From contig OZ024743.1 in the NCBI GenBank assembly GCA_964016885.1, positions 168,702,001 to 168,766,000 on the forward strand: a stretch of 64,000 nucleotides of DNA, written 5' to 3'. Made by a program: the position numbers and the translations under genes. The stretch is from Eledone cirrhosa (Eukaryota). Below the pieces are notes generated by a model, which had not been told where the DNA came from, searched no databases, and was given only the letters and a program-made list of their open reading frames with translations. This document shows positions 8,528 to 60,370 of the stretch, piece after piece. Position 1 is the stretch's first letter, and every line of letters starts with the position of its first letter.

Positions 8528-8618
8528 ACATATTACATATGTTTCACTGCCGATCACCTCGAGGAACGATCGATTATGTTCGTTCCTAACTCTGGAATCG
8601 AAAGCTCCTCACATATGC
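8528..8618 (-). ncRNA. Hammerhead with 60-nt stem II domain (C3 mutated to G)
   Basis: Minus: GCAUAU-GUGAGGA-GCUUUCGAUU..GAUCGGCAGU-GAAAC-AUAU-GUA-AUAUGU. Internal hairpin AGGAACGA/UCGUUCCU. Confidence 0.65.
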
Positions 8619-8997
8619 GTTCTCACATGTAGACTAACGTCCAAATGTTGCTGAATTGTTACACACCCGATTTGTTATTTCGGGTTTCCACAGACTTTGT
8701 TAGAAGAAATAGGTCATCGTCTACTTTATCATGCTAGATTGTGTTTGGGCATAGGCGACCAAGAATATATATATATATATATACGGGATAACAGATTATT
8801 GTTATAGGTAGTCAACTTAGGTGTAGTCCAGTTAGGGTACTCCGAGTAGTGGATGATATCAACGCTTGGCTAAGTTTGACTCAACAAGGCGTTTCCAGAG
8901 TGATGCTGCGAGTACGCGGTGATTTCTATGTTGTTAACACTTGGAGTAATGATAAATCAGGAAAGAAGGGTGACACGGTTTGCTATACAAAAAAGGT

Positions 8998-9095
8998 GAC
9001 AATTGTTTCTCTGGTAGGTCTAGAGATCGCTACCCGCTTGTTTTCGTGTCATTCGATCACCAATACATAGTTGTAATCAGTCTATTCATCAGAGC
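8998..9095 (-). ncRNA. Long-stem-II hammerhead with the 3' strand of stem I deleted
   Basis: Minus: GCU-CUGAUGA-(~75 nt)-GAAAC-AAUU-GUC, followed by a deletion relative to the 9636 copy. Confidence 0.6.
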
Positions 9096-9635
9096 TTGTG
9101 AGAATGAAAGGAATATATAGTAATGGCATTCAATCAGAACAATAACAACAATACCAACAATGCTAGCAATAAATTATTTGAAATAATCATAACATCAATC
9201 TAAGTAAGAAATATAGTATATCTACGACTTTAGCGTGTAAAGCTAGCTGACATGAGGCAGATGTATGAAATTGACATGTAAAAGCTGTCATTGGGTGTAT
9301 TATATATAGTGTAGAGATAAGCCGGTGGCTTTATACAATGTACCATTTCCTTTACTGTAGGTAAGAATCATTTATTATCATTGTAGTGAGGATAGTAATA
9401 TTTGAAGTGTGAGGTGGGTTCAATATTTATGTGGTCTATATTAGATGAAGGGATTGTTAGTTCGAATCATGGGTTGTTTAGCTTTCACATCATCAATAAC
9501 ATACATGTTTCTTACTTAGATTGATGTTGTGATTATTTCAAATAATTTATTGATAGTATTGTTGGTATTGTTGTTATTGTTCTGATTGAATGCCATTACT
9601 ATATATAGAAGCCATGCCTGTATATTCCTTTCATT

Positions 9636-9754
9636 CTCACAAGCTCTGACAAATTGACTGGTTACAACTATGTATTGGTGATCGAATGAGGCGAAAACAA
9701 GCGAGTAGCGACCTCTAGACCTACCAGTTCAGAGAAACAATTGTCAGCAATGAG
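9636..9754 (+). ncRNA. Long-stem-II hammerhead (core mutated to CTGACAA)
   Basis: ctca..GCT-CTGACAA-atTGACTGGT..ACCAGtTCAga-GAAAC-AATT-GTC-AGC..tgag. Confidence 0.6.
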
Positions 9755-10803
9755 ATTAAAAACCTTTTTTGTATAGCAAACCGTGTCACTCGTCTTTCCT
9801 GATATATATATATATATATATATATATATATATATATATATATATATATATAGAGAGAGAGAGAGAGAGAGAGAGAGGGGGAGAGGGAGAGAGAGAGAGA
9901 CGTATTAGAAGTATATATATATTTGTGCGTGAGTGTATGTGACAGTTGCTTATTAACAGTTATTCACTTTCACTGTTTTATGGGTATTTTGTAATATTGA
10001 TATTACGCATAAAAATAGAGTTACGACTCAATGCACATTTTCATAAATACGTATATACATGGACATACACACTCATGCACATACACGCACACGTATATAA
10101 TGAGTGTGCACATGCGTGTGCTAGAGAAATATGCAACAAAAGATAGAGAGATCACGTATGTACATGTGTACGTATTTCTTTGTATGTATGCATTATATAG
10201 ACATTGTACTAATGCCTCTACTGCGCTTATACATACACATAAACATTCACACCAGCCAATATATGTACGCAAGCACACACACGAATAATATATATTATTT
10301 TTAATAACTGACTCAGCATACAAAATGGGTCATATTCAAAGCGAGGTCGGGGTCACGCTAAACTTCGAAGTATGAAGATCGTTACTATTGTTCATAATTC
10401 AAATATATTTATTAGGACACCATATAAACAAAGAAATTTCGCGTTTATGCCTCATTTCATTAGTCTCTCTTTTTTTTTCTTCGCTTGATTCAGTAGTTTT
10501 CTTTTTTGCTATAGGAATATGTCACGTGTGCGTGTGCACGCGTTTCTATACACCTGCATGTATTTGTGTTTGTATATATTGATTCGTCTATCTATATGTA
10601 TACTTCCACGCTTCTAATTAAAATAAAAACTAGTTTTATTTACATTAAATATATACGCTGTGTTTTGCATAAATATTTATATAAATATTAATTAATTAAT
10701 TAATTACATTGCCAAAAGAATGCAAGTCATGCAAATTAGACTGCTAATTTCATTTATCAGTTGGCATATATAGTGCTAATGTTGAGGCAGAATCAAAGTG
10801 GTG

Positions 10804-57032: not shown

Positions 57033-57700
57033 TGTTTTCATTTATTGGTCACAAGCGCCGACATAGAGAGGACAATACAATAGACGGGGACAGTGGAGGT
57101 TTTACAAAAAAATCGAGAAAACAATATAAAGACAATAACAATGAATAAGAAAAATAAAATACAACAATGAAAAGTCCTGAATAAGAGAGAAAACCACACA
57201 GGGGCGACTCAGATACCCCTCTTCGAGAGCACCCGGAAAGTGCACCACTCTCGTCCTCAAATCAATCAGCCTACAGGCGCATGTTCAGATTAGGCCAATA
57301 ATATAGGCTTGCAATATCCACCCACATTTTAGCAAACGTACTGGAGGCAGCATTTCTCTCCCCACCCTCACCTTCCTTTCCAAGTGAAACTTGAAAAAGT
57401 TGATGAAGCATTGGTTAAAGAGAAAAAGTATCTGCCTTCAGTCTTTTCAACCTACTCCACCACACAACCTCTTTTGCTACTGCCACCAAACAGGAAAGCT
57501 GCCTGTTCCAACTGGTGAAATAATGGCGGAGGGGCGATCTTTACTATGGACTCGGCCGATAGCCAGATAACATACATGCGATAACAGCTCTACGACATAA
57601 TTCCACAAGTCAGTAATGCACGGATCCTGGACAAGTGCGTGTAGAACGGTTTCGTCGCTCTGCGCGCATCTCTGGCAGGGCCAAATGACAGCACCTCGTC
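57033..57700 (-). mobile_element. 3' fragment of a Tx1/L1-clade LINE related to 4125-4800
   Basis: Minus: CQRCAQSDETVLHALVQ..IWLSAES..FINFFKFHL..KVRV. Confidence 0.8.
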
Positions 57701-58042
57701 ATAAGTATGCATATATATATAGCGAACCATGCGTCACTACTTAATAAACGTAATTAAATCATAACAAATAGTCCTTTTTATTTTATATATATATATATAT
57801 ATATAGTATAGTAAGAATATTTTCGAAACAGCGAGTGGGTTTGAAATTATTAGAAATGTAAGTTATCGCCGTATTTTGACTAAAGAAATTAAAGAGATTA
57901 TTTAGCCTGATAGTGGGGTTAAAAACCCTCGGAAAAATGGAAAAAGAATATATATATATATATATATATATATATATATATATATATATATATATATATA
58001 TATATATGAAAAGTGTAATTTACTACACAAAACGAAGGTTAT

Positions 58043-60045
58043 AGAGAAAATTGAGGTTGGTAATGGCACATGGAATATATAAGAGACAGAATACTTTTTT
58101 GTGAAAAAACATATAATTTTATAAGGTAAGGAAATAATAAAGGGTATAAAAAATGACCGGTTTCGATGGGTCTGTAAAAGCCATCTTTTCAAATGTTGAT
58201 TAATATTAAGAAAAATTAATAATAAGAAGAGTTAAAATTTGAGATTTGAAAATTCAAGTATAAAATTCATTGTGGGATTTCATAGTAGTTTTCATCTTGG
58301 TAGCAGCTAGTTGACTGCTGTGTGCCTTTCTGGTAGTGAATGAGAAGTTATTTGGGGGTGTGGCTTATTTTATAAAGGTTAGATTTAGCAATGGCCAGAT
58401 GGCCAGCTGCTGGTCAGTGAGGGGGTGGAAGCAATATACATACATATATCTCCCTGTGGTCGGTAGGAGAGGTGAGATTGATAGAAAGAGATTTAGTGCA
58501 CTTACACCTATATATACACACATACCTTCATCCACACATACATACATATACATATACACATATATATATATATATATATATATATATATATATATATACA
58601 TATACACACATGCATACACACACACATACATATACATACACACATACACACACACATATATGCACATACACACACATATATATACACACATACACATATA
58701 TACATACACATACATCCAGATACACATACATACACACACACACACACATATATATATATGTGTAAATACACATATATACACACATATTCATACACATATA
58801 TATACACACACCCACACATACATACACGTGTATACATGTATATGTGTATATATGTGTATAACACGTGTACACATATATACACATACACGTGTATACATGT
58901 GTATGTGTATATATGTGTGTGTGTGTTTGTATGTGTGTATGTATATATACACACACACATATATATATACATACACACATACAAACACACACACACATAT
59001 ATACACATACACACACATATATATATACACACACACACATATATATATATACACATACGCATACATCCAGATACACACATACATACACACACACACACAC
59101 ACAATACATACATCCACATGCACACACATGTGCATGAGCGTATGTATGCGTATGTGTATATATATATATGTGTGTGTGTGTGTGTGTATATATATGTGTG
59201 TGTGTATGTGTATATATGTGTGTGTGTGTGTGTTTGTATGTGTGTATGTATATATATGTGTGTGTGTATGTATGTGTGGGTGTGTGTATATATATGTGTA
59301 TGTATATGTGTGTATATATGTGTGTGTGTATGTGTATGTGTGTGTATGTATGTGTGTATCTGGATGTATGTGTATGTATATACATGTGTGTGTGTGTATA
59401 TATATATGTGTGTGTATGTGCATATATGTGTGTGTGTATGTATATGTATGTTGTGTGTGTATGTATGTGTGTATATTATATATATATATATATATATATA
59501 TATATATATATATATATATATATATATAATGTATGTATATTGTATACGTATGTGTGGATGATGGTATGTGTGTATATAATAGGTGTAAGTGCACTAAATC
59601 CCTTTCTATCAATCTCCCCTCTCCTACCGACCACAGGGAGATATATGAATGTATATTGCTTCCACCCCCTCACTGACCAGCAGCTGGCCATCTGGCCATT
59701 GCTAAATCTGACCTTTATAAAATAACCCACACCCCCAAATAACTTCTCATTCACTACCAGAAAGGCACACAGCAATCAACTAGCTGCTACCAAGATGAAA
59801 ACTACTATGAAATCCCACAATGAATTTTATACTTGAATTTTCAAATCTCAAATTTTAACTCTTCTTGTTATTAATTTTTCTTAATATTAATCAACATTTG
59901 AAAAGATGGCTTTTACAGACCCATCGAAACCGGTCATTTTTTATACTCTTTATTTTCCTTACCTTATAAAATTATATGTTTTTTCACAAAAAAGTATTCT
60001 GTCTCTTATATATTCCATGTGCCATTACCAACCTCAATTTTCTCT
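58043..60045. repeat. ~2 kb palindrome: ~500 bp unique arms around a mirrored CA/TG microsatellite core
   Basis: 58043-58545 is inverted at ~59545-60045. Each arm has a degenerate hammerhead (TTGAAAA-GATGG..CCATC-GAAACCGGTC). Confidence 0.9.
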
Positions 60046-60248
60046 CTCTCTCTCTCTCTCTCTCTCTCTCTCTCTATATATATATATATATATATATATA
60101 TATATATATATATATATATATATATATATTCATTAGTTTAGCAAAACAAGACCACAAATTTCACAAGGAAGACATTATTAAAAGATTGTCAACATATTTT
60201 AGTTTGATGTAAGGAATGTAGAGAATAATAATAATAATAATAATGTCC

Positions 60249-60370
60249 GTTTACAATTGTTTCGCTACTCCATATGATATTTCTGGATCAGATGACTATA
60301 TATCATAATTGATCTGGTTCAGTTGAAAATAATTAACATATTTATAAAACAGAGCGGCTCATCGGAACTT
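60249..60370 (-). ncRNA. Hammerhead with 95-nt stem II domain (core variant CCGAUGA)
   Basis: Minus: GUU-CCGAUGA-GCCGCUC..GAGUAGC-GAAAC-AAUU-GUA-AAC. Confidence 0.65.

Follow-up and report, generated by a model that had tools for sequence, protein, structure and literature searches.

Predicted hammerhead ribozymes with giant stem II domains in Hydra-clade Penelope-like retrotransposons of Eledone cirrhosa

Why the two halves of a hammerhead ribozyme core should be held apart by a folded domain of 60-116 nt, in one repeat family after another, is the question raised by a 64-kb stretch of Eledone cirrhosa DNA (the window). All motifs that a sequence-only reading had named in it were re-located at the claimed positions and with the claimed spacers of 60-116 nt, and they are real rather than chance matches. 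A strict split-core pattern (CUGANGA, 40-150 nt, GAAAC-NNNN-GUH) occurs seven times in the window, against a mean of 0.095 (maximum 2) in 200 dinucleotide shuffles, the control that the reading had set; with stem I pairing added, five matches stand against 0.015. Across the whole genome, a 76-106 nt spacer yields 31,236 core matches against 1,656 for the reversed control pattern, an excess that bears out the proposed recurrent type I architecture, in which stem II forms a giant paired domain. Counted for a single stem III type, giant motifs (~29,600 above control) outnumber short ones (~21,500 excess matches), and Penelope-like copies with the giant pattern are estimated to number in the tens of thousands in this genome. 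That length-limited or model-based searches miss such motifs also proved correct, since Rfam returned no hammerhead at E<=10 over 8400-12200 and 41200-41560. In the literature searched we found no prior description of a giant stem II hammerhead in Penelope-like elements (PLEs); Hydra-clade hammerheads are already known, and what appears new here is the folded stem II domain of 60-116 nt.

The giant motifs are type I hammerheads by their conserved features and are predicted to self-cleave. We label the window families A (55510), B (41342), C (11927), D (14766), E (60249) and F (8528). In these families the type I order, A15.1-U16.1 and an NUH cut site are present, and the majority core is perfect in five of six, family E having CCGAUGA throughout (U4C). 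Among the 30 best BLAST copies per family, chosen without regard to the core, both core halves match in 23, 30, 17, 28, 28 and 20 copies of the six families (146/180 in total). Stem I closes the motif with 3-10 pairs, 3-5 bp in most families and weakly in I90 (1-2 pairs in register), and covaries at two of three counted pairs in the rows of families A and H and at three of four in those of G and C. The first pair of stem II, in hammerheads usually G10.1-C11.1, varies: family E has G-C, F has G-U, D has U-G, B and C share C.A, and H and G have U.U, which is reported in natural hammerheads (PMC3088659). The ends of the insert pair in five window families, as had been claimed, but not in the 55510 family, where an A-rich 4x3 gap opens the base of the 83-nt A subfamily, so that predicted cutting may be lost in this abundant subfamily; sister subfamilies close it after one mismatch. 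We saw neither a loop II near the core nor a conserved stem I bulge that could form a loop I-loop II contact, a contact also missing from known PLE (PMC4209133) and viral type I (PMC13725137) motifs. The 8-nt stem III is fully self-complementary in five of the six window families, the exception being family D, whose loop III at 14766 (AUUU) departs from the palindromic form that had been described. Loop III is palindromic in 25 of 30 unselected pattern loci against ~7% by chance, which upholds the view of a short, mostly palindromic stem III suited to dimers.

Most window copies are decayed. A young family B element at 36334..41559 (ends approximate), inserted in (TA)n, carries two identical hammerhead-bearing ends in inverted orientation, the left being the long 3' tail and the right the short end. 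Its hammerheads at 36541..36675 (-; core intact, loop III palindromic) and 41352..41486 (+; predicted cut after 41486) have 116-nt rod domains, and the final 58 codons of its RT-endonuclease frame (37506..37679, +) are 100% identical to the full frame in L092. Family A is represented by an 83-nt rod with an open stem II base (55522..55623, -), with a TATA-box-like sequence 41 nt upstream of C3 (55655..55664, -) and AATAAA 9 nt past the predicted cut (55507..55512, -); by a 70-nt copy of the 83-nt subfamily with a 13-nt deletion at the stem II base (51393..51481, +), ~930 nt downstream of a broken Hydra-type endonuclease end (50037..50465, +); by an 81-nt subfamily copy reduced to 76 nt, its 3' strand shortened and stem I lost (8998..9092, -), and its inverted partner of 81 nt with G8 changed (9646..9745, +); and by two truncated, inverted pieces joined within stem II (49673..49843). 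The family C hammerhead (11932..12045, -) has a 95-nt three-way-junction domain (96 nt in the family form), the family D copy (14778..14871, -) is 75 nt long after a 10-nt deletion relative to the 85-nt family form and has a 5' end ~-8 from C3, and the family E copy (60252..60365, -), with a 95-nt branched domain, lies 553 nt downstream of a Hydra-type endonuclease end (60916..61380, -). Family F, from C3 to N17 (8534..8612, -), has a 60-nt rod with a single AGU/GAG loop and a changed C3. A further hammerhead, absent from the first list, lies at 14459..14538 (+), with a 61-nt domain, a U-A type stem III and a changed A13 (3' half of the core damaged), downstream of a Hydra-type GIY-YIG endonuclease fragment (12706..13215, +). 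Two of seven folded window copies beat shuffles (41342, z -5.6; 8528, z -2.8), and the other five range from z -0.8 to +1.8.

The giant motifs can be placed in the pseudo-LTRs (pLTRs) of Hydra-clade PLEs. The family B frame, for which no Pfam family was returned, has RW- (RWK-like), DKT, CxCX5C linker, CxxC and CxH marks around the endonuclease end, with GIY-YIG at the C-terminus; such marks and a (TA)n target are those named for the Hydra clade by Craig et al. 2021 (PMC8557442, section 11), and the ends of B, A, D and G run into TA repeats, indicating (TA)n insertion. An endonuclease end precedes the motif at a fixed distance in several copies of families A, B, D, E and H, in one or two copies each of C, F and G, and at a single locus for I90, I91 and K90. 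In a quick tree of endonuclease ends and homologs, A and D fall into one clade (SH-aLRT 99). The repeat families are therefore not unrelated, as the sequence-only reading had them: four of the six (55510, 41342, 14766, 60249) follow a Hydra-type endonuclease end at constant spacing in several copies, A and D have their endonuclease clade and a doubled loop in common, and C shares its three-way junction with another family. The inserts are unrelated only in the sense that no pair of the six window inserts aligns (z>4), and not in origin. In family B, all 30 fetched copies are identical over the motif, ends are inverted and tandem array units measure 6.5-6.9 kb, including a microsatellite-rich 3' region of 3.5-4 kb; the Hydra-clade trait is <3 kb with a short hammerhead. 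Non-LTR retrozymes were considered as hosts and rejected, the giant motifs being element ends and solo pieces rather than short non-coding tandem monomers; the sole 310-bp tandem array seen (L273) has a 14-nt domain.

With the hammerheads described for the Hydra clade (PMC8557442) they share the protein marks, the (TA)n target, a position after the frame, a type I core and a short stem III, and stem II likewise opens with U.U, G-C or another non-standard pair. They differ in that the known stem II measures ~10-26 nt (File S2; 23 nt in the one octopus family listed), whereas here it spans 60-116 nt, folds as a rod or a three-way junction and often carries the ANU/YAG loop twice, and loop III is an even-length palindrome. 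Elsewhere, across 78 metagenome loci, 28 of 30 calls of Hydra hammerheads have a 10-25 nt domain, the other two being artefacts. The minimal PLE hammerheads of Cervera and de la Pena 2014 (PMC4209133) likewise lie in pLTRs with a weak palindromic stem III, are assumed to act as dimers and have many solo copies of low expected activity, but their 'larger than usual' helix II is 7-8 bp, against ~20-45 predicted pairs here. A PLE-type enlargement in Craig's File S2, PLE-X1_sMoe of Selaginella (marked there as deviating; stem II ~54 nt by our count), is a single, shorter family of another clade, with a 35-nt loop for which no structure or motif is reported.

The stem II domain takes two architectures, rod and three-way junction, in both of which subfamily comparisons reveal the compensatory changes that the sequence-only reading had wanted checked. 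In the A/H alignment (nine subfamily rows, 21 pairs), 94.7% of 189 cells are paired against 29-38% in slid controls, and nine pairs show two-sided change against 5.6 in shuffles (6/500); in the G/C alignment (five rows, 34 pairs), 92.9% of 170 cells are paired and 15 pairs show two-sided change (0/500). G-U pairs are frequent in these helices, as expected of an RNA strand. The three-way junction is shared by families C and G; for the E insert, shuffles fold equally well (z -0.1). One and the same non-canonical loop (ANU/YAG, a motif defined post hoc, among related rows) occurs twice, 11-12 nt apart, in eight of 19 family representatives, five of them outside the alignable A/H group and each reached by at most 3 of 500 shuffles. 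Its closing pairs vary between families and A.G is constant. The 85-nt form of family D carries it, as does I91, whose endonuclease falls outside the A/H/D clade. The strict doubled-loop test fails in 11 of 19 representatives: G, C and E, with a three-way junction, are without the motif, and B and F carry it once. Run over 18 loci, a covariance model built on just the A/H insert detected no D, I, K, B, F, G, C or E insert.

What might such a domain do? The TATA position and clustered 5' ends suggest that the transcript begins with the ribozyme. TATAAA lies at -46..-33 in five of 23 giant families of this genome (background 0.017) and five of 31 metagenome elements (0.007), and 21 of 87 partner-copy 5' ends fall at -10..+6, both bins having been defined post hoc; a relaxed Inr is enriched in the giant families (9/22) and not in short families of this genome (6/24) or the metagenome (6/25). 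A rotifer pLTR carries TATA and Inr, according to PMC3846280. Two discrete insertion ends lie ~55-75 and ~200 nt beyond the cut site. Past that site, 14 of 22 giant families have an AATAAA, which sits at +9 in families A, H and D and is missing from B, C, E and G.

That the domain is a protein-binding or regulatory module, as had been proposed, is plausible, and the reading we tentatively favour, at not quite an even chance, is that the element's own reverse transcriptase docks on giant stem II, at the point where the transcript is predicted to start. Pol II would start ~5-15 nt ahead of C3, so that ribozyme and giant hairpin would form the first 100-150 nt of the RNA; the element protein would bind the widened loops, and an uncut RNA would be reverse transcribed from a point downstream of the cut site. 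Two ribozymes may pair via stem III and cut slowly, probably with protein help, and the cut would rid the coding RNA of its cap and hairpin, or an upstream unit of its poly(A) end, thereby sorting RNA between template use and translation or decay. Protein-assisted cutting is a model borrowed from the Anolis Poseidon element PAc (Frangione et al. 2024, PMC11167929), whose hammerhead cuts only with its protein, whose core mutants still insert, whose minimal template begins within the hammerhead region, and in which uncut RNA is reverse transcribed from downstream of the cut and two ends define the tail. PAc has a small stem II overlapping the start codon and a tail of 30-40 nt, whereas in family B the start codon follows the cut at a distance of 360 nt, and ~135 nt separate the two ends. 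Hammerhead cuts in 5' UTRs can permit cap-independent translation (Lopez-Galiano et al. 2026, PMC13725137). The chrysovirus 5'-UTR hammerheads of that paper are likewise type I, placed before a frame and free of loop-loop contact, and their cut may switch translation, as proposed here, but their 'long helix II' is 6-8 bp and their stem III is stable, in viral RNA. According to PMC6155905, the discontinuous Clec2 hammerhead of mammals and the ASBVd hammerheads also have core halves far apart, and those of ASBVd act as dimers with a weak stem III, as is predicted for the motifs here; however, Clec2, a type III hammerhead in a 3' UTR, has its insert of 150-1500 nt in helix I, ASBVd helices merge into the viroid rod, and neither is described there as a closed, repeated-motif stem II domain in a retrotransposon.

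The main rival to docking is that elongation of stem II is simply tolerated: slippage and minor duplications would have lengthened a peripheral arm in a genome that is AT-rich and prone to microsatellites, selection would maintain no more pairing than brings the core halves together, and the loops would be inherited leftovers. This is possible, although we hold it improbable on balance. In a 1-Mb sample, the length of stem II varies continuously between 11 and 116 nt, which fits elongation better than capture and argues against the suggested 'cargo'. The family B rod gains and loses TA and 9-nt repeats (99-116 nt), a G-family copy has a 29-nt duplication, one B copy has shrunk to 16 nt, and three different architectures exist. 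Short-domain Hydra families are abundant too (21,500 excess matches), and Hydra elements whose domains measure 10-36 nt have multiplied successfully here and in other genomes, so that a giant domain is not required for transposition. However, deep branches agree in having lengths that gather at 79-97 nt, non-alignable families including I91 show one and the same unpaired 3x3 loop twice, one helical turn apart, and A/H subfamilies of 57-86% identity do not vary at the unpaired GUAUU and UAG columns.

Engineered aptazymes are man-made ribozymes in which a large folded sensor domain on stem II is joined to the core by a weak first pair. Both traits recur here, and giant stem II could be a natural aptazyme, an allosteric sensor whose doubled A.G loops bind the element's own telomerase-related reverse transcriptase and switch cleavage, leaving the RNA whole as template or cut to a cap-less message, with a lock-and-key domain per family; such putative allosteric control we regard as unlikely.

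It is less probable still that the domain helps by RNA contacts, its loops docking on stem I, the A-rich stretch past the cut or a partner ribozyme to replace the loop I-loop II contact and make the dimer active without protein. Canonical hammerheads require a stem I-stem II contact (PMC6155905), A-rich AATAAA is common past the cut site (14/22), and stem III stays palindromic though its letters differ. Yet the loops lie 16-35 nt from the core, out of reach of a stem I of mostly 3-5 bp, inspection by eye did not show the 5' bulge to be consistently complementary to the downstream stretch, and AATAAA, absent in B, C, E and G, is more simply a poly(A) signal. We give little credence to a mostly dead ribozyme whose hairpin acts in cDNA or DNA, where stalling or folding back at it would produce the head-to-head junctions typical of these elements. 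Many inverted junctions do lie within or just ahead of the motif, insertion ends past the cut site indicate uncut templates, insertion of the Anolis element survives core mutation and the helix base is open in the 83-nt A subfamily; but core halves, A15.1-U16.1, NUH, stem I pairing and stem III palindromy are kept while subfamily inserts differ by 25-45%, and the frequent G-U pairs in covarying helices are an RNA-strand sign. That the insert is cargo or a spliceosomal intron whose removal leaves a normal short hammerhead is very improbable, for although PLEs retain introns in pLTRs (PMC2377424, PMC4209133) and family B has GUAUGU, CUAAC and a YAG ending at G12, the short family B pattern has two genomic matches, neither at the predicted junction, no spliced copy was found, the GU ahead of the proximal loop covaries with its partner to GC, AC or AU in other families, and no insert examined reached an Rfam gathering score.

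One clade thus provides dozens of natural variants, with domains of 11-116 nt, for testing the role of PLE hammerheads, and in young family B, with identical copies and a near-intact frame, the candidate binding motif can be mutated. Models of fixed length can miss the larger share of ribozymes, as giant motifs (~29,600) exceed short ones (~21,500) here for one stem III type. Should the domain gate cleavage, engineered aptazymes would have a counterpart in nature, and the Hydra-clade variants make RNA recognition by telomerase-related reverse transcriptases directly testable.

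The sequence-only reading had described type I hammerhead motifs in which an enlarged stem II domain splits the core, and all of the motifs it named were found in the window (C4:168702001-168766000 of an animal genome of 3.0 Gb), with the spacers it gave. (TA)n and (CA)n repeats abound in the stretch, as does mobile-element debris. Matches to the strict split core number 7, where 200 shuffles average 0.095, and with pairing of stem I added the count is 5 against 0.015 (200 shuffles). A 1-Mb sample of 100 evenly spaced 10-kb stretches yielded 15 matches with a domain of 60-119 nt and at least 3 stem I pairs (one of these matches of at least 60 nt has a 20-nt hammerhead nested inside), while the same bins gave 0 in 10 shuffles. 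Genome-wide, the pattern with a 76-106 nt spacer matched 31,236 times and its reversed control 1,656 times; with an 8-38 nt spacer the same pattern matched 25,290 times and the control 3,826 times. Thus, window shuffles, sample shuffles and the genome-wide reversed control rule out a chance origin of the split cores. Since the other stem III types are common and mostly short-domain, the giant forms do not outnumber the rest of the hammerheads in this genome. A surplus in the raw count of 3' half cores, 346 vs 44 in the first sample, was discarded, as 284 of the 346 come from one locus, a satellite (L205) whose unit of roughly 15 nt yields these 284 look-alikes of the hammerhead half core within 10 kb. 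Of 186 Rfam matches in the window 150 were listed, and these include no hammerhead; two targeted scans (8400-12200; 41200-41560) likewise gave none. The Rfam matches are microsatellite look-alikes of microRNA families.

Which element carries these motifs is best seen in family B (window position 41342). Its 40 matches listed are 100% identical, many lie in inverted pairs, and four form a tandem array (L092) with units of 6.5-6.9 kb. A unit contains the hammerhead, a start codon that lies 360 nt beyond the predicted cut, and a frame for reverse transcriptase (RT) with a C-terminal GIY-YIG domain, which is split by one frameshift in the array. This frameshift lies in an A run near L092:1725 and is common to all three full units, and some contigs have one base fewer there. 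From the stop codon to the hammerhead, L092:3687-7650 holds 3.5-4 kb of microsatellite-rich sequence, compared with 0.7-1.4 kb in sister subfamilies. The frame has the motifs by which section 11 of Craig et al. 2021 (PMC8557442) defines the Hydra clade of Penelope-like elements (PLEs). Families A, D and E (window positions 55510, 14766 and 60249) and H, found elsewhere in the genome, stand at a fixed distance behind a Hydra-type endonuclease end in several copies; the genomic families I90, I91 and K90 do so in one locus each, and C (11927), F (8528) and the genomic family G have a Hydra frame nearby in only one or two copies. The carrier of the giant-domain hammerheads is very probably a clade already known, the Hydra PLEs. 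A quick tree built on 55 endonuclease ends, with several long branches and from which origins of the giant domain cannot be counted, joined A, H, D, I90 and K90 (SH-aLRT 99), kept B, E, I91 and the 36-61 nt families separate with unresolved branching, and placed an 11-nt family among database homologs. Outside the tree, named homologs include a cephalopod and a bivalve one (P0014, P0001), and Pfam had no family for the four frames searched. A Neptune or Poseidon carrier was rejected, since other copies of the giant families show no tie to the frames that lie at 19-21 kb and 53-54.7 kb in the window. By their motifs we take these to be a Neptune-like PLE (18961-21449) and a Penelope/Poseidon-like PLE (53207-54725, minus strand). 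Other frames in the window are presumably a LINE-type RT with endonuclease (4356-7580, minus), broken Helitron-like Rep/helicase frames (43400-47700, plus) and a further non-LTR fragment (56057-56893, plus).

The enlarged domain appears to be a structured RNA. Domain lengths range from 11 to 116 nt overall, with clusters near 50, 60, 79-85, 90-97 and 99-116 nt, and stem III is short and palindromic in 25/30 unselected pattern loci. Two giant architectures show covariation: a rod (A/H), with 94.7% of 189 cells paired across nine subfamily rows (slid controls, 29-38%) and two-sided changes in 9/21 pairs, and a three-way junction (G/C), with 92.9% of 170 cells paired across five rows and two-sided changes in 15/34 pairs. 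As the structures were derived from the same sequences and the rows are related, this covariation is supportive and no formal test. It is possible, if rather unlikely, that elongation of stem II is simply tolerated. A covariance model built from the A/H inserts alone picked up none of the other families' inserts in 18 loci, and MAFFT with RNAalifold over the distant rod families recovered the basal helix only. An unpaired 3x3 internal loop of rod families, ANU opposite YAG and defined post hoc, occurs at least once in 18 of the 35 representatives of at least 58 nt (2.8 expected). It is doubled, 11-12 nt apart, in 8/19 representatives (A81, A83, H79, D85, I90, K90, I91 and L370), each of which reached at most 3/500 in shuffles, and it is absent from G, C and E. 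We know of no named RNA motif that matches it. Perhaps the domain serves RNA-RNA docking, although we consider this improbable.

Among the comparators reached, which include no close relatives of the giant families, the giant form appears special to the Eledone cirrhosa genome, since their domains are short. From 78 metagenome loci with Hydra-type frames, 53 of them extending 150 nt or more beyond it, came 30 hammerhead calls behind the frame, 28 with domains of 10-25 nt; two long calls (97 and 135 nt) were dropped for a short alternative in the same sequence. The relevant part of File S2 of Craig et al. 2021 (PMC8557442) has Hydra families of about 10-26 nt and one Selaginella element of about 54 nt, marked as deviating. 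This entry and the Clec2 and ASBVd motifs, as far as described in the pertinent part of PMC6155905, are the nearest precedents. The 'half-core' layout of Naiad is different, at least in Naiad_Ovul, where the GAAAC half lies 5' of the CUGAUGA half in the section concerned (PMC8557442), and 'long helix II' denotes 6-8 bp in the passages on published hammerheads in PMC4209133 and PMC13725137. Full-text literature, a scope with most subscription papers and supplement descriptor figures outside it, yielded no description of PLE hammerheads with a stem II of 60-116 nt.

Smaller domains also abound. A GAAAU-NNNN-AUA stem III class with 20-36 nt domains is very common (window 879-927 and 1639-1688, both minus; many other loci, e.g. 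L372:1199 and L261:4391), and its 36-nt family is located after a Hydra endonuclease end. In a 49-52 nt group (L116, L117, L196, L257, L276, L333), loop III is a palindrome of 6 nt and the subfamilies vary clearly. Window 12600-12680 is a short inverted-repeat structure with a 29-nt-domain hammerhead inside, and L273:380-3400 (minus) is a retrozyme-like satellite, a tandem array of units of about 310 bp, each with a 14-nt-domain hammerhead.

The window copies are mostly worn: only 2/7 folded copies did better than shuffles, and several have core changes or deletions. An extra hammerhead at 14459-14538 (plus), with a 61-nt domain and a U-A type stem III, has a damaged 3' half core; a Hydra endonuclease end precedes it by about 1.2 kb. 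Each window family has at least 200-1,500 first-look candidates, and in the majority rows the core is perfect in five of six families, while the sixth has CCGAUGA. Compared with base shuffles, the majority inserts scored z between -2.7 and -7.7 in all families but E (-0.1). That the ribozyme is dead and acts at the cDNA level seems to us quite improbable.

Where the motif sits in the element is suggestive. TATAAA precedes the core position C3 by 33-46 nt in 5/23 of the giant families (background 0.017) and in 5/31 metagenome Hydra elements (background 0.007). At the metagenome loci with short-domain Hydra hammerheads (L381-L458), a TATA box lies upstream by about 40 nt, and AATAAA often follows the predicted cut. 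As both signals thus also occur at short-domain hammerheads of other animals, this arrangement of the start site may extend to the whole clade. Enrichment of a relaxed Inr is confined to the giant families. With copies used as search targets excluded, 87 5' ends were counted from -139 to the end of stem II, and 21 of them are at -10..+6 (binomial p about 1e-6, with a post hoc bin and copies that may be related), several as head-to-head junctions; no pile-up was seen at the cut site, with 7/211 copies within 3 nt. In 14/22 giant families AATAAA or ATTAAA is present no more than 28 nt after the predicted cut, and the insertion ends lie about 55-75 or about 200 nt beyond this cut and not at it. 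Taken together, TATA, 5' ends, poly(A) signal and insertion ends suggest an LTR-like R region, with a predicted order of start, ribozyme, poly(A) signal and RT start sites. In B, D and E the optional 3' tail measures about 135-145 nt (e.g. window 36334-36470; L096-L097), as against the 30-40 nt described for other PLEs. In the parts of the sources concerned, the D. virilis Penelope promoter lacks a TATA box (PMC2377424) and a rotifer pLTR has TATA and Inr (PMC3846280). The family B motif is present in contigs of four runs of unspecified kind, from the window's organism and two others, and these contigs, in which RNA ends are not visible, contain no joint across stem II. An intron or cargo in stem II is very hard to credit, and the intron was rejected on evidence that includes the closing pairs of the first ANU/YAG loop, whose variation between families (GU/AC, GC/GC, AC/GU, AU/AU) argues for RNA structure and against splice sites.

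What purpose might the enlarged domain serve? That these are hammerhead motifs with an enlarged stem II in Hydra-clade PLEs we regard as very probable. Our leading proposal, with the whole chain falling a little short of an even bet, is that the arm grew within the Eledone cirrhosa lineage with its pairing kept and that, in the rod families, the two loops on one face would form a docking site for the element's own protein. The protein of the Anolis element, in the account given in part of PMC11167929, depends on the hammerhead region, begins its work downstream of that region and must be present for cleavage. Dimer cleavage via the palindromic stem III would then take off either the cap together with the hairpin or the poly(A) end. 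A precedent for cut-enabled translation is described in a section of PMC13725137. By removing one end or the other, the giant-domain hammerhead may sort template from message in these elements.
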